This document shows, piece after piece, positions 27,891 through 42,652 of a stretch of DNA of 60,258 bases. The notes beneath the pieces are model-generated. The model was not told where the DNA came from, did no database searches, and saw only the letters and a program-made list of their open reading frames with translations. Source of the DNA: Bryobacteraceae bacterium (GTDB lineage: Bacteria > Acidobacteriota > Terriglobia > Bryobacterales > Bryobacteraceae); the NCBI GenBank assembly GCA_049514735.1, contig JBEKUT010000001.1, positions 1 through 60,258 of the forward strand, read 5' to 3'. The position numbers and the translations under genes are program-made. Position 1 is the stretch's first letter, and each line of letters opens with the position of its first letter.

Positions 27891-30431
27891 CTAGCGCGGG
27901 CTGAACGAGAAGCCTGAAATCGCGACCTCATCCTTGCCAGGGATGAAGAATCCGAACTTACCCTGGTTTGCATTCGCTTGCGGAAGCGTATCGATCACCA
28001 CCCACTGATCGCCTTCGCGCATCTTGTGAACAATGCGATCCGCTGAAATTTCGATCTGCAGGGTGAATGGCTCCTGGCCTTCAATCTGGACCTTCGGCCG
28101 CTCAACGCTCTTGCCGTTCGATACGATTCTCGACTGCAGGGTTTTCTTGTCGAGCTGGAAGTGGACGTAATTCTTATCGTCCACATTGTTGACACGCCAC
28201 TGGATGTGCTTGGTGAAAACGCCGCCCTTTAACAAGCGGGCGGAGAAGATGAAGACGCCCGTGCTGGGCTGCACATTGAACGGCACGAAGTTGCCGCCAC
28301 TGTGGACGAGCCAGCCGTTGCCGGCCTGCCACTCCGCCGGGTGCTCCCAATCCGGTTTGGCAATCGCCGCCTTGACGGTCCCGCCTTCCTTGACGAGCTT
28401 CACTTCGGCCACGGCCAGGTCGCCCGGCTTCACTTGGACCGAGACGGTAGCGTCCGTGTAGCCGGGGGCCTTGCCGACCAGAACATAGTTGCCCGCCGGA
28501 AGCGAGTGCGATCCGGCGACGATCGGATTTCCACGCGACTCGTCGGAGCGGCGGATCAGTACCTGGGCCTCCTTGGGCGTCAGAGTCAACCGCAGCGTCC
28601 CAGTGGCGCGTTCCAGAACCACAGCATCACCCGACAGTTCGAGGGTCTCGCCGGGACGGAAGGTTTTGCTCAAAGTCTTGGGGATGTACTGCTCCCGCCG
28701 GATCTCGACAGTATGATCGCCGGGAGCGACATTGGGGTATGAGAGCGCGCCGCTGGCATCGATCTTACCGGCGCTCTGGTTGTCGATCAGAACATCCGCG
28801 CCAGGCGTGGCGCCCGTGATGTGCAGCACCGCAATTTGCGGGATGGCCTGCAGTTTGAATGCAACCCGCGCCTCTTCACCCTTCTTGACGGAGGCGGTCT
28901 GCTCCTGCGAATCCTGGAATCCCTGCTTTACAACTTTTATCTTGTAGTCCTTGGGCGCGAGATTGTAGATCCACAACTGGCCGCGCTTTGTTTTGTGGGG
29001 ATACGCCTTGCCGTCGACCAGGACGGTCGCATTGTCCTCGCCAGCGTTGACCACCAGCACGCCGCTGGTGCTGGCGTTGATCCAGGCCGTGAGCACGGGA
29101 GCGGGACTGGCCGTTACCGTAAGTTTGCGGTCGTCTTTCCCGTCGTTGAGGGTCAGTTCATGATCCCCCGCTGCGATGTCGTTCAGGTCGATTCCATTGG
29201 CTCCCGCGTCTCCCGCCGGCTTGCCGTCGAGAGACACTTTCATCGGCATCACGCTGGTGCCGATGTGGATCTGGCTGCCAAGGCCGCTGGCCAGGACAGC
29301 CGCGAGATTTTTCGTGGCGATGGAACCCTGAAGCGTGGGCGCCGATCCGGGGGAGGCTAGAAAAGAGAACTTCGCCTCAGCGCCTTTATCGCTGGTGATT
29401 TTGACGTCGTGGGTACCGGCCGCCAAACGATCGAAAACGGCCTGCCCATCCTGGAGCGGTCCCATGGGCTTGCCGTCCAGAACCACTTGGCCGCCATTGC
29501 CGAGGTCGGTAAGGATTTTGAGCGTAGGAGCCTGCGGGATCAGCGTCAGGCTGAGCGTGACCGGATGGCCCGCCTCCACGGTGACGCTCTGGAGGGCTTG
29601 CTCGTATCCCGGGAGAACCGCCATCAGGTTGTATTGTCCAGGTTTAAGATCGATGCGGCAGTTTGACTTACAGGTCGATTGATCGTTGACGCGAATCTCG
29701 GCTCCGGCGGGGATGGTGCCGACCGACACCGCGACGGTAGAGGCCGGCGGCGCGATCGGCGGCGCGGCGGGCTTCCGCTTCACGTAGGCCATAACGCCTA
29801 CGATGGCAGCGACTACGAACAGGCCGAGGAACCCGCCGATCAACGCGGGTTTCCTCCAGTTCGCAGGCGGTCCAGCGGGCGGAGGAGGGGGCGGCGGAGG
29901 CGGCGGCGTCCTGACAGGAGGCACGTAGACTTCGCGCATCGATTCAGTCCGACTGCCGATGGATTCCTCGGGGGCGGTCCGCCCAGGATTCGGGAGGGGC
30001 AGCGTGTCGTCTATCTGAGCCGGGTAGGAAGACGTCGGGATGCTCGGAACCGGCGGCGCGCCGGTGGCGGACATGGCAATTCCGAGCGACCCGGTGGCAT
30101 GGGAGGCCAGCATGGGATTGCTCCCCGTGGTGACGCCACCCTCCGGTTTCAGTTCACGGCCGCGGCTCATAAGGTGCTGCTTGATGCCGGAGACCCGCTT
30201 CTGGACATCGAGATCGGCCGAGTTGTCCTTAGTAATCTCCTCAAGACGATAGAAAATCGGCTTCAAAGCGTTCAGGTCCGGAGCGGCGTCGATCTGGCCA
30301 TCCAGACGGTTCAGCTCATCCACAACGGACGAAGTTTCGCGTTTATTATCCACAACGTTCCTGCATCCTGAATTATATAGCCCGAGCGCAGGGGACGGTG
30401 GAGCCCCTGATTCCGCGTGCTTTACGGGCAC
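27891..30431 (-). CDS. Membrane-anchored PEGA-domain repeat protein with a proline-rich juxtamembrane region
   Basis: It has a cytoplasmic N-part, a P11 tract, and one TM helix (ALIGGFLGLFVVAAIVGVMAYV). Repeated PEGA-like beta modules follow (IRVNDQ ... LKPGQYNLMAVLPGYE; VLIDNQSAG ... APGDHTVEIRREQY; etc.). The start is uncertain. Confidence 0.65.
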   Translation of the reverse strand: MPVKHAESGAPPSPALGLYNSGCRNVVDNKRETSSVVDELNRLDGQIDAAPDLNALKPIFYRLEEITKDNSADLDVQKRVSGIKQHLMSRGRELKPEGGVTTGSNPMLASHATGSLGIAMSATGAPPVPSIPTSSYPAQIDDTLPLPNPGRTAPEESIGSRTESMREVYVPPVRTPPPPPPPPPPAGPPANWRKPALIGGFLGLFVVAAIVGVMAYVKRKPAAPPIAPPASTVAVSVGTIPAGAEIRVNDQSTCKSNCRIDLKPGQYNLMAVLPGYEQALQSVTVEAGHPVTLSLTLIPQAPTLKILTDLGNGGQVVLDGKPMGPLQDGQAVFDRLAAGTHDVKITSDKGAEAKFSFLASPGSAPTLQGSIATKNLAAVLASGLGSQIHIGTSVMPMKVSLDGKPAGDAGANGIDLNDIAAGDHELTLNDGKDDRKLTVTASPAPVLTAWINASTSGVLVVNAGEDNATVLVDGKAYPHKTKRGQLWIYNLAPKDYKIKVVKQGFQDSQEQTASVKKGEEARVAFKLQAIPQIAVLHITGATPGADVLIDNQSAGKIDASGALSYPNVAPGDHTVEIRREQYIPKTLSKTFRPGETLELSGDAVVLERATGTLRLTLTPKEAQVLIRRSDESRGNPIVAGSHSLPAGNYVLVGKAPGYTDATVSVQVKPGDLAVAEVKLVKEGGTVKAAIAKPDWEHPAEWQAGNGWLVHSGGNFVPFNVQPSTGVFIFSARLLKGGVFTKHIQWRVNNVDDKNYVHFQLDKKTLQSRIVSNGKSVERPKVQIEGQEPFTLQIEISADRIVHKMREGDQWVVIDTLPQANANQGKFGFFIPGKDEVAISGFSFSPR

Positions 30432-30520
30432 ACGCGGGCTTGAACGTCACACCTGGCGCACGAGATGCCAACTGAGTATTGATCGGCAGGTAGGTCCATT
30501 ATTTGCAGGGGTGGGGTTGT

Positions 30521-30922
30521 ATGAACAGGCTTGGCGCCGTAGTTGTGCTGCTCGCCGCGCTTAGTACTACTGGTACTGCGCAGCCGCAGAGATTCGTGGG
30601 TGATTGGGAAGCGCGGTTTAAGGGCGACGTGTTTCTGACGCTCAAACTCCAGGAGGGAGAGCCCATATCGGGGACTATGAGCGGGGGTTCTATCCGCGTC
30701 GATGACGATGGCAACCTGACGGAAGCGTCCGGCGGAGGCGACGAGCTACCGATCTCGAAAGCCGTTATTGAAGGCGATACGCTTTCGTTCGACTGGAAGG
30801 GCTCCGACGATGAAACGCTACGCATCCGGATGCGCGTGACCGGTGATGGTGAGGCGCAGCTTCAGTTTATGGGTTTGCCCGAGGGATTGAAGATGAAGCC
30901 TTTCACGCTCAAGCGAAAGTAA
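30521..30922 (+). CDS. Hypothetical secreted protein
   Basis: A signal peptide (MNRLGAVVVLLAALSTTGTAQP) is followed by a small beta-rich domain. I recognised no family. Confidence 0.5.
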   Translation: MNRLGAVVVLLAALSTTGTAQPQRFVGDWEARFKGDVFLTLKLQEGEPISGTMSGGSIRVDDDGNLTEASGGGDELPISKAVIEGDTLSFDWKGSDDETLRIRMRVTGDGEAQLQFMGLPEGLKMKPFTLKRK

Positions 30923-31107
30923 GACGGTGAGATCATCGGCTCGCTCACGCACCGACCCTCGATTCCGAGCCGCGCCCAGCAGGAAGCGGTTGGTCAAGGT
31001 GTTCGCGAAGCCAGACTGTGAGTGAAGTACGAGCAGTGCCGCTCCGTCACATTCGCGCTTTTGCAACCGGAAAGCGCTTCGCTCCCTCTGAAGAATCTGT
31101 ATGAATC

Positions 31108-33219: not shown

Positions 33220-33803
33220 AAGAGTCCTTTGGTGGATGGCAATTGATCTTTTAAGCGCGCGTCTTTGGAACAGGCATATCGCAAGGCGCGCGCAAAACAC
33301 TTGAAGATCGCTTCGATTTTGTGATGGCTGGACCGGCCGTAGAGAACTTTCGCGTGAAGATTTGCGCCGGCGTGATTTACGAATCCGCCGAAGAAATCTT
33401 CGACGAGCTCGGTTTGCAGATCGCCCACCGTTCGAACTTTGACCTTATCCTTATAGACGAGCGCTGGCCGGCCGCCGAGGTCGAGCGCCACAACGGCGAG
33501 CGTTTCATCCATCGTCATCACAAAATAACCGGCGCGATTGATGCCTTTGCGATCGCCGAGGGCTTGCGCGAACAACTGGCCCAGCACGATCCCGACATCT
33601 TCCACGGTGTGGTGCTGATCGACATCGAGGTCGCCGGTGGCTTTGAGTGTGAGGTCGAACCCGCCATGCTTGGCGAACAGCTCCAGCATGTGATCGAAGA
33701 AGCGGATGCCGGTTGAGATGTCGTACTTGCCGCGTCCCTCAATGCGGAGCGTCGCGGTGATCTGAGTTTCTTTCGTGTTGCGCGTGAGATCAGCAGATCT
33801 CAT
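33216..33803 (-). CDS. hisB: Imidazoleglycerol-phosphate dehydratase HisB (monofunctional)
   Basis: I chose the start at [23 protein letters not shown]. The IGPD motifs are [12 protein letters not shown] ... [11 protein letters not shown] ... [13 protein letters not shown]. There is no fused phosphatase domain. Confidence 0.9.
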
Positions 33804-34446
33804 TGATGTCACCCAAAACCTGGATGGCGCCTTCCTGCTGGAGCAGCGCGACCACATCGTTTCTGCCTGGCGTCTCCGGACCTACGACGCCGATGAAGGG
33901 CACGTTTGCGGCGCGGGCGCTGCGGGCGTCATCGACAGTGTCGCCGACGTAGAGCAAGCGCTTGCCGGGATGCTGCGCGGCGATCTTCATGAGACCTTCG
34001 GGATGCGGTTTGCCGTTCTCGACATCGTCGGAAGACACGATCATGCAGAAATGCTCGCCGCAGCGCTCGCGTTGCAGCGTGACGCCGGCTTCCTTCCGAT
34101 TGCGGCCGGTAAAGATTGCAAGATCGAAGCGCTCTAGAAGCGTCTCGAAGAAGCCGTTCTTCGGGAGCCAGCGCTCGCGATGGATGAGTCCCTGATCCAG
34201 GAACAGCTCATTGAAATACGCGACCACCGTTGCATAGTCGACTTCGACGCCGAGGTCGGCGCAAATCTTCCGCGATAAGGCCCAATCGTTATTCCAACCG
34301 CCCGAGTTCTTGTAATCCTGGATCCGCTCGCGCGCGATTTTCTTGCCGGTGAAATGCTCGACAGTCCGGACGATGGTTTCGCGATACGATTCGGACACGT
34401 CGACAAGCACGCCGTCCATGTCGAAAACGAGAAGCTGTTTCACCAT
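33790..34446 (-). CDS. HAD superfamily (subfamily IA-like) hydrolase embedded in the his operon; candidate histidinol-phosphatase
   Basis: I chose the start at [16 protein letters not shown] (HAD motif I). Also present are FTGR (motif II), GKPHP (motif III Lys) and [11 protein letters not shown] (motif IV). It overlaps both hisC (7 nt) and hisB (14 nt). Confidence 0.7.
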
Positions 34447-35516
34447 ATTTCGCGAAGCTCCTTCAGGAAGCGGCGGACCTGATCGCGCGTGCCGACGGTT
34501 ACGCGAACACATCCAGGAATTTCGTAGCTGCGGTCGCGAACGAGTACGCCCTGGGCGCGCAGTTCGTCGCGGATGAAAACGGCACGCTCGCCGGCGTCGA
34601 AAAGGACGAAGTTCGCTTTGCTCTCGTAATATGGGATGCCCAGTTCTTCCAGGCCGACGTAGAGCAGTTCGCGCGCGGCCAGCACTTCCGTCACGTACTT
34701 TTCGACGAAGGCCGTGTCTTGCACCGCGGCACGGGCCGCGACCGTCGCAACCGTGTTTACGCTGTACGGCGATTGGGCTTTGTGCAGGAACTCGACATTT
34801 TCGGATTGCGAAAAGAGACACCCGATGCGCATCCCGGCCATGCCGTAAACTTTCGAGAACGTCCGGCTGACGAAGAGGTTCGGATAGTCGTTGATCAGGC
34901 CGAGCGTGGTGACGCCCGAGAATTCGTAATAGGCTTCGTCTATTAGCACCGCGGCGTTCGTCGCTTTTTCCAGGACTCGTTCGATACCCGCGCGCGATGT
35001 GCCGGTGCCGGTGGGATTGTTCGGATTGGAGATGAGCACGGCGCGAGTGACGGGGCTGATCGCGTCCAGTAACTCTTCCAACGGAAACGCGAGCTTCTCG
35101 CGGCGGTAAGGAATTTCGCGAACCTCCGCTCCCGCGACCTCGGCGTAAAAGCGATACATGGCGTAAGAAGGCTGCAGCGAGACGACCTCGTCGCCATCGT
35201 CCACATACGTGTTGATGAGCACCTGGATGGCTTCGTCGGTGCCGTTGGTGAGGATGAAATCCTCCGGTTCGACGCCGAAGAACGCGGCCAGTTCCTGCTT
35301 CGCGGCGCGGTATTCCGGGTAGACGGCGAGGCGCTCTTCCGTCAAATATTCGAGCAGCGCTTCGATGACTCGTGGCGATGCGCCGATAGTGTTCTCGTTG
35401 AAATCGAGACGCACTTTTCCAAGGCGGCCTGATGTCGGCGGCGAGTACGGCTGCATGCGAAGGACCGCTTCTCGCGGCTGCAGCACGCCGGGTGGCAGTT
35501 CGATTTCTCTAGACAA
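34440..35516 (-). CDS. hisC: Histidinol-phosphate aminotransferase HisC
   Basis: It is a class II aminotransferase: LDFNENTIG ... LISNPNNPTG ... VSRTFSKVYGMAGMRIGC (the PLP-binding Lys). Confidence 0.9.
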   Translation of the reverse strand: MSREIELPPGVLQPREAVLRMQPYSPPTSGRLGKVRLDFNENTIGASPRVIEALLEYLTEERLAVYPEYRAAKQELAAFFGVEPEDFILTNGTDEAIQVLINTYVDDGDEVVSLQPSYAMYRFYAEVAGAEVREIPYRREKLAFPLEELLDAISPVTRAVLISNPNNPTGTGTSRAGIERVLEKATNAAVLIDEAYYEFSGVTTLGLINDYPNLFVSRTFSKVYGMAGMRIGCLFSQSENVEFLHKAQSPYSVNTVATVAARAAVQDTAFVEKYVTEVLAARELLYVGLEELGIPYYESKANFVLFDAGERAVFIRDELRAQGVLVRDRSYEIPGCVRVTVGTRDQVRRFLKELREIW

Positions 35517-36737: not shown

Positions 36738-37607
36738 TCACATCACGATCTTGTTCAATGGATATTCGACGATGCCCTCGGCGCCGGCCTCCTTGAGACG
36801 CGGAATAATGATGCGGACAGTGCTCTCGTCGAGGATGGTATGGACTGCTACCCAATCGTCTTCGCTGAGGTTTGAAATGGTCGGTTTCCTCAGCGCCGGC
36901 AGGATTTTGAGGACCGCCGGGAGATGGTGCTTTTCGACGTTCAACATCAGGCCGACCTTGCCCAGCGCGTTAATGGCCCCTTCGAGCAACATCTTGATAT
37001 CTTCCAGTTTGCGACGCTTGTCGGCATCGCGCCAGGAATCGACATTCGCGATGAGTTGCGTGTTCGATTCGAGAACAGTTTCGATGATGCGTAGATTATT
37101 CGCGCGCAGAGACGAGCCGGTCTCGGTGACCTCGACAATCGCGTCGGCGAGTACGGGCGGCTTCACTTCGGTGGCGCCCCAACTGAACTCGACCTTCGCC
37201 GTTACGCCGTTCGCTTCGAGATAACGCCGCGTGGCGGAAACTAATTCGGTCGCAATAATCTTTCCTTGCAGATCTTTGACGGAACGAAATGGAGACGCTT
37301 CCGGAACGGCGAGTACCCAACGCACTTTGCCGAAGCTCTGCTTGGCATAAATCAAATCGGCGACGGTCTGAACGTGCGCCTCGCCTTCTTGTACCCAGTC
37401 GCGGCCGGTGAGGCCCGCATCGAGAACGCCGTCCTCGACGTAGCGGGCCATTTCCTGCGCGCGGATCAGCATGCATTCGATTTCGGGATCGTCGATGGAT
37501 GGGAAATACGATCGCGAGCTGGTGGTGATGTTGAAGCCCGCGCGGCGAAATAAATCGACGGTCGCGTTCTCGAGGCTGCCCTTAGGAATTCCGAGCTTCA
37601 GCATCAT
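36738..37607 (-). CDS. hisG: ATP phosphoribosyltransferase HisG (long form)
   Basis: It is 289 aa: [12 protein letters not shown] ... [16 protein letters not shown] plus the C-terminal regulatory domain. This is the long HisZ-independent type. Confidence 0.85.
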
Positions 37608-37984
37608 TTGCTGTAAACCTCGGCGGGATCGTAGGCGCGCTCTTCAGATTCCACCCACTCACCTTCGTCCAGCCTGCGGAAAAAACAACTCCGATAGCCT
37701 TCGTGGCACACGCCCGGCCCAAGCGCTTCGACGCGGATGAGCAGCGCGTCCTTGTCGCAATCGGTGGAGATTTCCTTCACAACAAGACGATGCCCCGATG
37801 TTTCGCCCTTCAGCCACAGCTTGTTGCGGGAACGGCTGTAAAACGTCGCAAAGCCGCTCTCCACGGTCTTTTCGAACGCTTCCTCATTCATAAATCCAAC
37901 CATGAGGACGCGTCCCGTTTCGTGATCTTGAATGACGGCCGTTATAAGACCGCCGAGTTTACTGAAGTCCAAATCTGTCTTCAT
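37604..37984 (-). CDS. hisI: Phosphoribosyl-AMP cyclohydrolase HisI (no fused HisE)
   Basis: The sequence is [26 protein letters not shown] ... [18 protein letters not shown] ... [11 protein letters not shown] ... [10 protein letters not shown]. It is only 126 aa. Confidence 0.9.
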
Positions 37985-37987
37985 AGC

Positions 37988-38022
37988 AATAAAAAAGCCC
38001 GCCTTGAACTCGGCGGGCTGGC
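37988..38022 (-). terminator. Intrinsic terminator of the his leader (attenuator stem-loop) directly abutting the hisI start codon
   Basis: The minus strand reads AGCCCGCC-GAGTTCAA-GGCGGGCT followed by TTTTTATT, then GCT, then the hisI ATG. The + strand has no T-run after the stem, so the element is minus-strand specific. Confidence 0.8.
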
Positions 38023-38043
38023 TTGTTTCAGTTCAAAATCGGT

Positions 38044-38100
38044 TTAGACGCCCGCCCGCCATCGCGCATGGTGATGATGATGGGCGTGCGTGAAAAACAT
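38044..38100 (-). CDS. his operon leader peptide (18 aa, MFFTHAHHHHHARWRAGV)
   Basis: The codons are ATG TTT TTC ACG CAC GCC CAT CAT CAT CAC CAT GCG CGA TGG CGG GCG GGC GTC TAA. Six of 18 codons are His and five are consecutive. The ORF lies 21 nt upstream of the GCC-extended terminator stem (24 nt upstream of the 8-bp stem). Confidence 0.75.
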   Translation of the reverse strand: MFFTHAHHHHHARWRAGV

Positions 38101-38144
38101 GAAGTTTCATCTTAGCACGCGGGCCTGATAAAGTAGATACCTGC

Positions 38145-39740
38145 GTGCCAGCGATCCGATCCATGATCGACCGGGAATCTAACTTATACCAGTCCAACTA
38201 CGCCGCTATGCAAGCCGCGCTGGAGCGGTTGCGCGCGGAACTGAAGCGCTCAACCGAAGGCGGCGGCGAGAAATACGTCAAGCGCCATATCGAACGGGGA
38301 CGCCTGCTGCCGCGCGACCGCGTCGAGATGCTGCTCGACGAAGGTTCCTACTTTCTCGAAATCGCGCCGCTAGCAGGTATCGGGATCGAGGGCGAGTTTC
38401 CTGGCGCAGGCGTGATTGGCGGCATTGGACTCGTGTGCGGCCGCGAGTGCTTGATCATCGCCAATGAAGCAACAGCGAAGGGCGGCGCGACCGGAGAAGC
38501 GGGTCTTTGGAAGAACGCGCGGCTTGCCGATATCGCGCGGCAAAATCACTTGCCGACGATTATGCTTGTGGAATCCGCGGGCGCGGATCTGCCGCAGCAG
38601 AGCAAGATCTTCGTCGCGGGCGGACGCGGTTTCCGCGAGATCACGCGCCGATCGAAGCTTCGCATTCCGACCATTTCGGTTGTCTTTGGTAGCTCCACGG
38701 CCGGCGGCGCTTACCTGCCCGGCATGTCCGATTACGTGATCATGGTGAAGAAGCAGGCGCAGGTTTTTCTCGCCGGACCTCCGCTGGTGAAGATGGCTAC
38801 CGGCGAAGTGTCGGATGAAGAATCGCTGGGCGGCGCCGAGATGCACTCGCGTGTTTCGGGATTGTCGGATTTTCTCGCGGAAGATGAACTCGATGCGATT
38901 CGCATTGCTCGTGAGGTGATCGGTCATCTGAATCGTCCGAAACCGGGAGTTCCGGCAGCTACGCCGCGCCCTCCTGCATATGATGTTGACGAGCTTCTCG
39001 GCATCGCGTCGGCCGATGTACGCTTGCCGTTCGAGATTCGCGACGTGATTGCGCGGATTGTCGATGCAAGCGAGTTTGTGGAGTTCAAATCTGAATATGG
39101 ACCGACGCTGGTGACTGGATTCGCGCATGTTCACGGCTTTCCGGTCGGCATTCTCGGCAACAACGGCGTGTTGATGACGGAGTCGTCCGAGAAGGGCGCG
39201 CAGTTTATCGCGCTCTGCAATCAGCAGAATATCCCACTTCTGTTTCTCCAGAACATCACTGGATTTATGGTGGGGCGCGCGTATGAAGAGGACGGCATCA
39301 TTCGGGCGGGCGCGAAGCTGATCAATGCGGTTTCAAACTCGACGGTTCCTGCGATCACGATTATGGTTGGCGGATCTTACGGCGCCGGAAATTACGCGAT
39401 GTGCGGACGCGCCTACGAGCCTCGTTTTCTATTTACATGGCCGAACCATCGCATCGCGGTGATGGGTGCGCAACAGCTATCGGGCGTGATGGATATTATC
39501 CGCCGCGAGGCTGCCGGGAAAGCGGGACACGCTGTCGATGAAACGAAGTTGACGTTTGCGAAGAAGGCGCTGGAGGATCAGATCACACGCGAATCGGATT
39601 GTTATTTCGCGACAGCGCGTTTGTGGGACGACGGTATTATCGATCCTCGGGACACGCGCACAGTGGTCGCGATCGCGTTATCGGCGGCGTACAACGCGCC
39701 GGTGGAAGGAACCATGGAGTGGGGCGTGTTCCGGCACTAA
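38145..39740 (+). CDS. Acyl-CoA carboxylase carboxyltransferase (beta) subunit, methylcrotonyl-/geranyl-CoA carboxylase type
   Basis: At about 530 aa it has a carboxyl_trans domain pair ([11 protein letters not shown] ... [19 protein letters not shown] ... [11 protein letters not shown] ... [16 protein letters not shown]). The start is GTG 38145 or ATG 38163. Confidence 0.8.
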
Positions 39741-41514
39741 TATGGCTCTACTCCGCAGAATCCTGATTGCAAATCGCGGCGAGATCGCGGTGCGAATTAT
39801 TCGGACGTGCCGCGCGATGGGGATTGAAACGGTCGCCGTCTATTCGGACTTCGACGCCAACGCGCTTCACGTTCGGCATGCGGATTTTGCGGTGCGTATC
39901 GCATCGTATTTGAATATCGAAGCTATGCTCGAAGCCGCGAAACAAACGGCGGCGGACGCTGTCCATCCCGGCTACGGTTTTCTCGCAGAGAACGCCGATT
40001 TCGCGGCCGCATGCGAAGGCGCGGGCGTTATTTTTATCGGTCCGCGTTCGGAAGTGATTCGCGCGTTGGGATCAAAAGTTAACTCGCGCGGGCTGGCGGA
40101 ATCGGCTGGCGTGCCGGTAGTGCCTGCTCCGAAAGAGGGCGAATTTCCGGTCCTTATAAAAGCGTCGGCGGGCGGCGGCGGACGCGGGATGCGCATTGTT
40201 CACAGCGCCGCGGAGTTGAACGACGCGTTACAGGCCGCGCGTTCCGAAGCTGAGCGTGCTTTCGGCGATGGAACGCTGCTGATTGAGAAATACATTGAAG
40301 GCGCACGGCACATCGAGGTCCAGATCTTTGGCGATCATCACGGCAACGTCATGCACTTGTTCGAGCGCGACTGTTCCATTCAGCGCCGTTATCAGAAAGT
40401 CATTGAAGAGAGCCCCGCGCCCAATCTGCCAACGACGTTGAGGGATCGCATCGCAGACGCCGCAGTCGCTTTTGCGAAGAAGCTCGGATATACAAACGCG
40501 GGCACCGTTGAATTTCTCGTCGCGCCCAGCGGCGAGTTCTATTTCATTGAGGTGAACACGCGCATTCAGGTGGAACATCCGGTGACGGAAATGATCACGG
40601 GGCTCGATTTGATTCGTTTGCAAATCGAGATTGCGGAAGGCCGTCCACTTCCTCCACAACCCGAGCCCAAGGGTCACGCTATCGAAGCGCGATTGTATGC
40701 CGAAGTTCCGGAGAAGGGCTTTATGCCGTCGACCGGAGTTCTGCACGTTTGGGAGCCGCCGGATCATGTTCGTGTCGATACCGCGGTCGAGCGAGGAACC
40801 GAAATCGGCGTCCACTACGATCCATTGCTCGCGAAAATAATCGCGCATGCCGAGGATCGCGAAACGGCGGTTCGCAAGTTGGAATACGCGCTGCGAAAAT
40901 TCGTGGCGCAAGGTGTGGAGACGAATCGGGAATATCTGATCGAGTTGCTCGGAGGCAAGCAGGAACCACCGGATGATGCGCTGTTCGCCTCGGTTGTCGC
41001 GGATTATATCGAACGCTCGGGGCAGGCGCGGCGAACGATCCTTCCGTCGATTCCGATCGGCTATCGCAACAATCCCTATCCACGCCCGGCCATGAAGTTC
41101 GAAATCGCGGGACGCGAATATTCAGCCCATGCTCGATGCGGCGGCCAGCGATACGAAATCCATCGGAACGGCGACGAGTATTATGTCCGCTCCGCGCTGG
41201 TGCAGCGCACGGTTCGCCGTCTGCCTCGCTATCCGAACGCCGCCGGTAAAGCGCTGCATGAAACGGCGAATTCGCCGATGCCCGGTTTGGTTCTGCGAGT
41301 TCTGGTCAGCGCGGGGCAGCAGGTTCAGCCCGGCGATCCGCTAGTGGTCCTGGAGGCGATGAAAATGGAGCAAACTATTAAAACCAGCATCCAGGGCGAG
41401 GTGCGCGCCGTATTGGTAAAGTGCGGTGACATCGTTGCGCCGGGACAAATGCTGGTCGAAATTGTGGCAGGGGGAAAAGATGAGCACGCACGCGGTACCG
41501 CAGCTAACGACTGA
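39741..41514 (+). CDS. Acyl-CoA carboxylase biotin carboxylase + BCCP (alpha) subunit
   Basis: I chose the start at [23 protein letters not shown], 1 nt after the upstream stop. It has the ATP-grasp ([15 protein letters not shown]) and a C-terminal biotinyl domain with [11 protein letters not shown]. Confidence 0.85.
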
Positions 41515-42652
41515 GTTTCCGTATTTCGACGAGGATCATGATCTCATCCGGCAAACGGTAAAGCGGTTCTGCCGGGAAGAGATTGCGCCCTACGCAGCCG
41601 ATTGGGACGACGAAGGAATTTTCCCGCGCGAGCTGTTTCGCAAGGCCGCGGACCTGGGACTCTTCGGCATCCGCATCGATCCCAAGTGGGGCGGCAGCGG
41701 TCTCGATTGGTGGGCGACGGCCGCGTATCTCGAAGCCATGAGCGAGTCGGAAAGTGGAAGCGTCAACATGGCGTTTATGGTCCAGTCGGAGCTGACCATC
41801 CCCGTAATTCAGGAACTGGGGACAGCGGAGCAACAGGAGCAATTCATCCCGAAGGCCGTCAGCGGCGAGTGGATCGGATCGCTCGGAATCAGCGAGCCGA
41901 GCGGCGGATCGGATGTGGCGGCCATCAAGACGCGTGGTCGATTCGCTGGGGACGATCTGGTTATCTCTGGCCAGAAATTGTGGATCACGAATGGCACGCG
42001 CGCGGACTTCATCGTGCTTGCGGTGCGGACGGGCGCGGAGGGTCACAAAGGTATTTCGCTGGTGCTCTTCCGAACGGATACGCCGGGGTTTTCCGTCGGC
42101 AAGAAGCTCAAGAAGATCGGCAATCTGGCGTCCGATACTGCCGAGCTGTTTTTCGACGAATGCCGCGTGCCTGCAGGCAATATTCTGGGCGAAGTGAATC
42201 GCGGTTTCTACTACATCATGGAAAATTTCCAGGGCGAGCGTCTGGCGGCTGCAATCGGCGCGCTGGCCGCGATGGACAAAGGAATTCGCGATGCCATCGC
42301 GTATGGCCACGAACGTACCGCGTTCGGTTCGCAAGTTGGAAAATTCCAGGTCTGGCGTCACCGTTTCGCCGAACATCTAACAGCGATCGAGGCTGGTCGC
42401 TGGCTCGTTTATCGCGCGCTCGATTTGTTGAACCGCGGCAAACGTGCCGTCCGCGAGATCACGATGGCGAAATTGTACACTTCGGAGCTGTCGCAGAAAA
42501 TCTCCTATGACTGCATGCAGATCTTCGGAGGGTTCGCATATACAACCGAATATCCGGTGGGACGCATGTGGCGCGATCTGCGTTTGAATACCATCGGCGC
42601 GGGAACGTCTGAAGTGATGAAAGAGATCATCGCCAAAGAAGAAAAACTTTAG
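41480..42652 (+). CDS. Acyl-CoA dehydrogenase (isovaleryl-/citronellyl-CoA dehydrogenase candidate)
   Basis: I chose the start at MSTHAV, preceded by GGGGGAAAAG. ACAD blocks are [16 protein letters not shown] ... [34 protein letters not shown]. Confidence 0.8.

Follow-up and report, generated by a model that had tools for sequence, protein, structure and literature searches.

A probable histidine leader-peptide attenuator in front of the his operon of Bryobacterales

The histidine biosynthesis operon of a Bryobacteraceae bacterium (Acidobacteriota) is located on the minus strand of a 60,258-nucleotide (nt) stretch of DNA (assembly GCA_049514735.1, contig JBEKUT010000001.1, positions 1 to 60,258), the whole of which is called the window here. 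The operon starts with hisI and is preceded by a short open reading frame (ORF) rich in histidine codons and by an intrinsic terminator hairpin. In all likelihood, this element is a ribosome-mediated leader-peptide transcription attenuator, which would sense charged tRNA-His and control the hisI-led operon. The same reading had been proposed in a preliminary description of the window and is now strongly supported by comparative and thermodynamic evidence, namely conservation, covariation and folding with ribosome masks. Four sequence features of the class of leader-peptide attenuators were found together, i.e. a conserved ORF enriched in His codons, an intrinsic terminator, a mutually exclusive antiterminator and a 1:2 pairing. 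To judge from sequence, the attenuator is conserved throughout the sampled Bryobacterales, and the likely leaderless start of its ORF is the one unusual feature.

Leader, terminator and alternative pairings in the window

The hisL-like leader ORF (MFFTHAHHHHHARWRAGV followed by the stop, 38100-38044, minus strand) was read directly from the sequence and comprises 18 codons and the stop codon TAA at 38046-38044 (ATG TTT TTC ACG CAC GCC CAT CAT CAT CAC CAT GCG CGA TGG CGG GCG GGC GTC TAA). Six of the 18 codons encode histidine. The regulatory His codons span 38088-38068 on the minus strand and consist of CAC (38088-38086), one Ala codon and CAT CAT CAT CAC CAT (38082-38068), in agreement with the five consecutive His codons plus one more that had been reported before. 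This run is the sole one of four or more His codons in all six frames of the 60-kb window, where approximately 0.1 runs of four codons and 0.003 runs of five codons are expected analytically from the base composition. The ORF is located 60 nt upstream of hisI, and tandem His codons in front of a his operon are a feature of the Rfam family His_leader (RF00514).

An intrinsic terminator hairpin (segments 3:4, AGCCCGCC-GAGTTCAA-GGCGGGCT, 38019-37996, minus strand) was found by the terminator scan. It begins 24 nt past the leader stop codon, forms a perfect stem of eight base pairs, seven of them G-C, with an 8-nt loop, and has a calculated energy of −18.1 kcal/mol. The stem is followed by the U-tract TTTTTATT (UUUUUAUU, 37995-37988, minus strand), by GCT and by the ATG of hisI at 37984, so that the earlier account of a hairpin 24 nt past the stop, a U-tract and a start codon 3 nt further on is borne out by the sequence. 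A hairpin of the type GCCCGCC...GGCGGGC with a T-run occurs only once in the window. The terminator stem had also been said to sit directly on the initiation region of hisI; this part of the description is refined here, as the stem ends 12 nt before the AUG and leaves it uncovered, and no Shine-Dalgarno-like sequence is present inside the stem. Since the upstream neighbour of the leader, an acyl-CoA carboxyltransferase gene, is transcribed divergently, the hairpin terminates no upstream gene and belongs to the 5' region of the his operon.

Folding placed three segments on the minus strand of the leader. The first His codons are partly contained in segment 1 (38091-38076), which forms the 5' half of a 1:2 hairpin (anti-antiterminator or pause hairpin). 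Segment 2 (38063-38048) consists of the last leader codons and can pair with either segment 1 or segment 3, the latter (GCCAGCCCGCC, 38022-38012) serving as 5' arm in the terminator and as 3' half in the antiterminator. The 1:2 helix, formed by 38091-38076 with 38063-38048, has an energy of −22.4 kcal/mol, and a 1:2 pairing had indeed been predicted. The predicted antiterminator was recovered as well: GGCGGGCGGGC (38060-38050) pairs with GCCAGCCCGCC at 10 of 11 positions, with −21.6 kcal/mol in context.

Which of these helices forms in the window's leader depended on the position of the ribosome in the model, where the ribosome mask had a footprint reaching to +12 nt. With no ribosome, the 1:2 helix and the terminator formed together (−40.5 kcal/mol). 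When the A site was placed on any of the His codons 7-10, segment 2 was left free as the antiterminator 5' half, the 2:3 helix formed and the terminator was excluded, even in the full-length transcript at equilibrium. With the ribosome at the stop codon, segment 2 was covered, the antiterminator 5' half was masked and the terminator alone formed. Folding with and without constraints, as had been suggested in the preliminary description, gave the predicted switch in this way. The antiterminator (−21.6 kcal/mol) beats the terminator (−18.1 kcal/mol) under a His stall. Taken together, the modelled states give the leader the geometry of a classical attenuator.

According to the mechanism proposed here, transcription would start just past an extended −10 element, either at the leader AUG itself or no more than about 3 nt away from it, and the leader would be translated from leaderless or near-leaderless mRNA. 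When His-tRNA is plentiful, the ribosome would reach the UAA and cover segment 2 (38063-48), segments 3 and 4 would pair, and RNA polymerase would terminate within the U-tract, 4-11 nt ahead of hisI. At a low supply of His-tRNA, the ribosome would stall on the His codons (38082-68), covering segment 1 and leaving segment 2 free; segment 2 would then pair with segment 3 once this is transcribed, the terminator would be blocked, and readthrough into hisIGDC-HAD-BHFA would follow. A leader not occupied by a ribosome would form the 1:2 and 3:4 helices together and would be terminated.

Comparison of leaders across Bryobacterales

The comparison set comprised the 80 closest HisI loci, one genome per species, all of them belonging to Bryobacterales (other labels in use are Solibacteraceae and Acidobacteriota subdivision 3) and with HisI proteins 74-93% identical to that of the window. 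A short His-rich ORF with 3-6 His codons per 7-codon window is found upstream of hisI in 78 of the 80 species. In these 78 loci the ORF is 15-25 codons long, the nearest AUG being taken as the start, and ends 57-148 nt before hisI. Together with the window, 79 leaders were analysed, using an alignment (A1) made by MAFFT and not fitted to structure.

Outside the His run the leader peptides are very diverse, e.g. MRSAHHHHHRTVWRSAAF, MSAARHHRHHHHHRHAAPRRAHS and MASVTLARHHHHSSTRRALQ. The His codons themselves vary synonymously (CAT 275, CAC 181), and to judge from these exchanges the constraint on the His positions is one on codon identity. A different picture was obtained for the frequent C-terminal Arg-Arg-Ala (RRA) motif, which is frozen as CGA-CGG-GCN: CGA is used in 25 and CGG in 33 of 34 RRA motifs, compared to a share of 6% and 23%, respectively, of the Arg codons in the adjacent hisI genes. 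The nucleotide sequence kept here, GCGACGGGC, is segment 2, and it is their part in this segment that fixes the distal Arg-Arg-Ala codons down to the nucleotide. With respect to codon choice in the His run, CAT accounts for 60% of the leader His codons (275/456), for 27% in the neighbouring hisI genes and for 35% (15/43) in the his genes of the window. The leaders favour the wobble-read, less used His codon, which could tune the sensitivity of stalling or might just serve the 1:2 pairing.

The terminator core GCCCGCC/GGCGGGC with its U-run is present in 76 of the 79 leaders, the T-run after the stem is conserved in alignment A1, and the end of the stem is 10-25 nt away from the hisI start in most loci. 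When the MAFFT alignment was folded with RNAalifold, nothing but the invariant terminator core of 6 bp was recovered, with no covariation; for this reason the 1:2 and 2:3 helices were tested with explicitly stated structures. In a fixed 10-bp register on A1, 80.7% of the antiterminator cells are paired, compared to 27-42% when the partner is slid by 1-3 columns, and the covariation score was matched by none of 500 shuffles. The sole antiterminator pair outside the terminator core (columns 91-156) covaries, with GC in 28, UA in 18 and GU in 4 leaders. Similarly, 78.4% of the cells of the 1:2 helix are paired versus 33-60% in slid registers, and the pair formed by columns 20-81 covaries (UA 32, CG 13, UG 8). 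Segment 1 is located just upstream of the His run in most loci, which places the His codons in the loop. On a neighbour-joining tree built from hisI-hisG DNA, a rough tree on which events were not rigorously counted, the alternative states of both covarying pairs are spread over several distinct clades, and they are thus not due to one single inherited change. An alignment of hisI upstream regions had been named as a check for a conserved His run and for compensatory changes in all three stems; the His run is conserved and such changes are seen in the 1:2 and 2:3 helices, while the near-invariant terminator core has none.

The calculated energies point in the same direction. The 2:3 duplex has a mean of −20.1 kcal/mol over the loci, versus −12.9 kcal/mol with a shuffled segment 2. 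When the mask represented a stall at the second His codon and the RNA was cut off ahead of the 3' arm, 61 of 76 loci folded into the antiterminator; with the ribosome at the stop codon, the terminator formed in 75 of 76. Without ribosome, it was the terminator that formed in 66 of the 76 loci.

Metagenomes were scanned with a pattern of four His codons, a gap of 18-48 nt and a GCCCGCC/GGCGGGC-type terminator. Of the 17 matches obtained, 12 consist of a His-rich leader with a hisI of the Bryobacterales type directly behind it. No hisI is located downstream in the remaining five; four of these are without a His-rich ORF and one (L086) has a doubtful His-containing ORF.

Start of the leader and relation to known attenuators

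The preliminary description had pointed out that no Shine-Dalgarno sequence is visible in front of the leader ORF. This still holds, and an element upstream of the ORF offers an explanation. When 60 nt of sequence in front of each of the 79 leader AUGs were aligned, the consensus TGnTAtaCT was found at −17 to −9, followed by five variable bases and by TTY at −3 to −1. Out of 79 sequences, 59 have T at −17, 58 have A at −13 and 48 have C at −10, while G at −16, T at −14 and T at −9 are present in 56 each. Of all ATGs in the loci, only 1.3% have TANNNT in front of them at the same spacing. In the window, this putative extended −10-like element is TGCTAAGAT (38117-38109, minus strand), which ends 8 nt before the leader AUG. 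From a −10 hexamer ending at this distance, we infer that transcription starts approximately 0-3 nt ahead of the AUG. Translation of the leader ORF thus probably takes place on leaderless or nearly leaderless mRNA, which would account for the absence of a Shine-Dalgarno sequence. This agrees with the prediction that 9.7-19.4% of the genes are leaderless in the three Acidobacteria genomes available at that time (PMC3160421). An out-of-frame ATG further upstream (38111) was rejected as start of the leader, as it is part of the −10-like element and its frame is without the His run.

A more far-reaching proposal is made tentatively and is given slightly less than an even chance. It states that the leader is truly leaderless, with the AUG 0-3 nt from the 5' end, that the ribosome loads on the nascent 5' end behind RNA polymerase and decides between termination and readthrough, and that this terminator-based attenuator has an origin separate from those in Proteobacteria, Firmicutes and Actinobacteria and is fixed across Bryobacterales, perhaps also in the wider Acidobacteriota. 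If true, it bears on the coupling of transcription and translation where ribosomes load on an AUG at the very 5' terminus.

Control of the enterobacterial his operon by a leader peptide with His codons is the textbook case of attenuation. HisL of E. coli has 16 amino acids, seven of them His, and hisL is preceded by a normal 5' untranslated region with a Shine-Dalgarno sequence. The leader described here resembles hisL in that an ORF of similar size contains a His run, four segments allow the alternatives 1:2, 2:3 and 3:4, the stop codon adjoins segment 2 and an intrinsic terminator is located right before the first his gene. It differs in the phylum and in the first gene of the operon, which is hisG in the enterobacterial case and hisI in Bryobacterales, and the window's leader contains five consecutive His codons plus one more instead of seven. 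Furthermore, it has no Shine-Dalgarno sequence, lies 8 nt from the −10-like element and is probably leaderless. The likeness to hisL asserted in the preliminary description was therefore retained for the logic, which is the same, but not for the sequence family: the Rfam His_leader model (RF00514), the use of which had been recommended, gave no match even at E≤10 on 37700-38400. For this reason the Bryobacterales leader is regarded as an analogue, not a homologue, of His_leader. As far as sequence comparison goes, it works like hisL without belonging to the RF00514 family, and it probably evolved independently.

At the gathering score, no Rfam family matched anywhere in the window. Below this threshold, resemblances to the Thr, Phe, Trp and Leu leaders were obtained on 37700-38400, driven by the terminator and the general layout. 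The best of these was Thr_leader (RF00506) with 32.2 bits (E=4e-4) over the full model length, the gathering score being 55. Both have a region of repeated codons, then a hairpin and a terminator of the form GCCCGC...GCGGGC followed by a U-run; Thr_leader, however, has Thr/Ile codons and precedes the thr operon, whereas the Bryobacterales leader has His codons in front of the his operon. Membership in any of these four families was rejected, as the matches are sub-threshold and reflect architectural similarity alone.

Leaders rich in His codons were also predicted in the Bacillus cereus group, where they precede hisZ/hisS (PMC2965389), and in three lineages of Firmicutes, including Peptostreptococcaceae and Erysipelotrichales (PMC9413887). 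Like the Bryobacterales leader, these were found by comparative genomics, encode lineage-specific His-rich peptides combined with terminator and antiterminator hairpins, are not matched by RF00514 and are thought to be convergent (PMC2965389; PMC9413887). They differ in phylum, in the downstream genes and in sequence, which is unrelated, and a leaderless arrangement is described in neither PMC2965389 nor PMC9413887. The closest precedent for a regulatory short ORF (sORF) at the very 5' end of an mRNA is the mycobacterial system of leaderless poly-Cys sORF attenuators (the 'Cys ribulon'), which act by sequestering a ribosome-binding site and not via a terminator (10.1101/834739). Both sORFs are devoid of a Shine-Dalgarno sequence and contain repeated codons for the amino acid that the downstream operon makes; the sORF begins at the mRNA 5' end in mycobacteria and probably does so in Bryobacterales, and a stalled ribosome remodels, or would remodel, the RNA structure downstream (10.1101/834739). 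The differences are the amino acid, Cys in mycobacteria and His in Bryobacterales, and the structure controlled, which is an intrinsic terminator with a U-tract in the latter. The leaderless start was demonstrated in mycobacteria, whereas it is a deduction for Bryobacterales.

The claim that such an element was undescribed in Acidobacteriota stands: in the open-access literature, no account of attenuation by a leader peptide was found for Acidobacteria or Acidobacteriota, which is absence of evidence. Hardly any cis-regulatory RNAs of known function are available for Acidobacteriota, and the His attenuator would be a first case with an assigned function. It adds a well-supported and readily testable regulatory element for an abundant soil order and would represent one more independent invention of His-codon attenuation by convergent evolution, in which classical control of termination is probably combined with leaderless translation. 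Leader ORFs of 15-25 amino acids are missed by genome pipelines; a covariance model built from the 79-sequence alignment could find them.

Alternative explanations and genomic context

Several observations weigh against an attenuator or against its leaderless start. The consensus-based sigma-70 promoter scan reported nothing for the leader, the −10 hexamer of the window (TAAGAT) is a weak match and the −35 region shows no conservation among the 79 aligned upstream regions, so that the assignment of the promoter rests on conservation across species. The 8-nt spacing exceeds that usual for strictly leaderless genes by 1-2 nt. As to structure, the terminator stem core is near-invariant and hence shows no covariation of its own, and in 15 of 76 loci, pairing with the leader under the stalled mask was limited to three to four of the six core nucleotides in the 5' arm. 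In full-length equilibrium folds with the His-stalled mask, the terminator was still preferred in 49 of 76 loci. Since the terminator wins at equilibrium, antitermination in these loci would depend on kinetics, i.e. on formation of the 2:3 helix before segment 4 is made. Classical attenuators likewise rely on 2:3 forming before segment 4 is transcribed. Finally, one related locus (L071) is without a leader.

In L071 (L071:2170-2500), the CTGCTATACT promoter-like box upstream of hisI is kept, an ORF with AUG and His codons is missing, and a long G+C-rich stretch replaces the attenuator. In another locus, L078, the full architecture is retained with only two His codons (MVPAARHHRRNPIPVRRALS; L078:2330-2500). 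Both loci may reflect a loss or weakening of His sensing.

The hairpin might also act mainly on translation, the 3:4 stem blocking the loading of ribosomes on hisI and a His-stalled ribosome relieving this block, with little or no termination. Such a function would be in line with the end of the stem 10-25 nt before the hisI start in most loci, with the lack of a visible Shine-Dalgarno sequence of hisI and with the sORF attenuators mentioned above that sequester a ribosome-binding site (10.1101/834739). It is nevertheless considered unlikely, as five to eight U residues right after the G+C-rich stem are kept in nearly all loci, a feature required for termination and not for occlusion, and as the stem contains neither the AUG nor a Shine-Dalgarno-like sequence. 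A translational block and termination could both occur together. Much less probable still is a functional micropeptide, either metal-binding or trans-acting like peTrpL, with a terminator that just ends its transcript and an incidental position next to hisI. His-rich peptides can bind Ni or Zn. Leader peptides with functions in trans are known (PMC7298713). The peptide is, however, not conserved beyond its His run, and its other conserved part is kept at the level of nucleotides instead of amino acids; moreover, hisI accompanies the ORF in 78 of 80 species and in 12 of the 17 pattern matches, and a micropeptide gives no reason for the complementarity of the 3' end of the ORF to the terminator arm.

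Control of the terminator by another sensor, i.e. a T-box, a riboswitch or an RNA-binding protein, with the short ORF left untranslated, is just as improbable as the micropeptide. The ORF has no Shine-Dalgarno sequence, and T-boxes control his genes in other phyla (PMC9413887), both of which would fit. On the other hand, neither the T-box covariance model nor any riboswitch gave a match at E≤10 on 37700-38400, where the leader region is approximately 115 nt long, and the whole window is free of Rfam matches at the gathering score; the spacer between ORF and terminator is short (24 nt) and variable, and in 78 species the His codons are in frame with an AUG and a stop codon and vary synonymously. 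An accidental run of His codons beside an ordinary terminator or insulator has a negligible probability: 0.003 runs of five His codons are expected in the window, and the arrangement is kept in 78 species with divergent sequences, so that chance is in effect refuted by the comparative data. The reading as a ribosome-mediated attenuator, which was supported by conservation, covariation and folding with ribosome masks alike, is preferred.

The first gene under the putative control, hisI (phosphoribosyl-AMP cyclohydrolase, 37984-37604, minus strand), was assigned by NCBIfam NF000768 (E=2e-45, above cut-off). It is followed on the same strand by hisG, hisD, hisC, a gene for a HAD hydrolase, hisB, hisH, hisF and hisA (37607-31128, NCBIfam and Pfam matches). 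All genes of this operon, hisIGDC-HAD-BHFA, abut or overlap their neighbours. HisI (37604-37984, minus strand) is monofunctional, with 126 amino acids and the cyclohydrolase only, and no hisE (phosphoribosyl-ATP pyrophosphatase) was recognised adjoining the operon. A recognisable Shine-Dalgarno sequence of hisI is lacking; in the window, its AUG is located 3 nt past the U-tract (37985-37995, minus strand), and initiation presumably relies on an unstructured A/U-rich stretch. Reinitiation or translational coupling from the leader to hisI was rejected, as the spacer of 57-148 nt is far from the peak at 10-15 nt (PMC4833913). A plus-strand ORF at 37703-38047 was dropped as a gene, being antisense to hisI.

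The HAD-family hydrolase between hisC and hisB (approximately 216 amino acids, 33790-34440, minus strand) matches Pfam HAD_2 and, below the cut-off, is similar to NCBIfam TIGR01548. It is a candidate for the histidinol-phosphate phosphatase step. Its true start is probably near 34440, because the listed ORF (33790-34821) would overlap hisC if the GTG at 34821 were used. Two small ORFs located 3' of hisA (30818-31066 and 30499-30825, minus strand) have no Pfam match.

Divergently from the leader, a cluster on the plus strand (38145-42652) encodes the acyl-CoA carboxyltransferase (mmdA-like), a biotin carboxylase with a biotin-carrier domain (39556-41514) and an acyl-CoA dehydrogenase (41426-42652). 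The cluster looks like an operon for the catabolism of leucine or branched-chain acyl-CoA, and its promoter and that of the his leader lie in one and the same intergenic region, approximately 45-60 nt long. A large protein of 846 amino acids with PEGA and carboxypeptidase-regulatory-like domains is encoded downstream of the his operon (27891-30431, minus strand).

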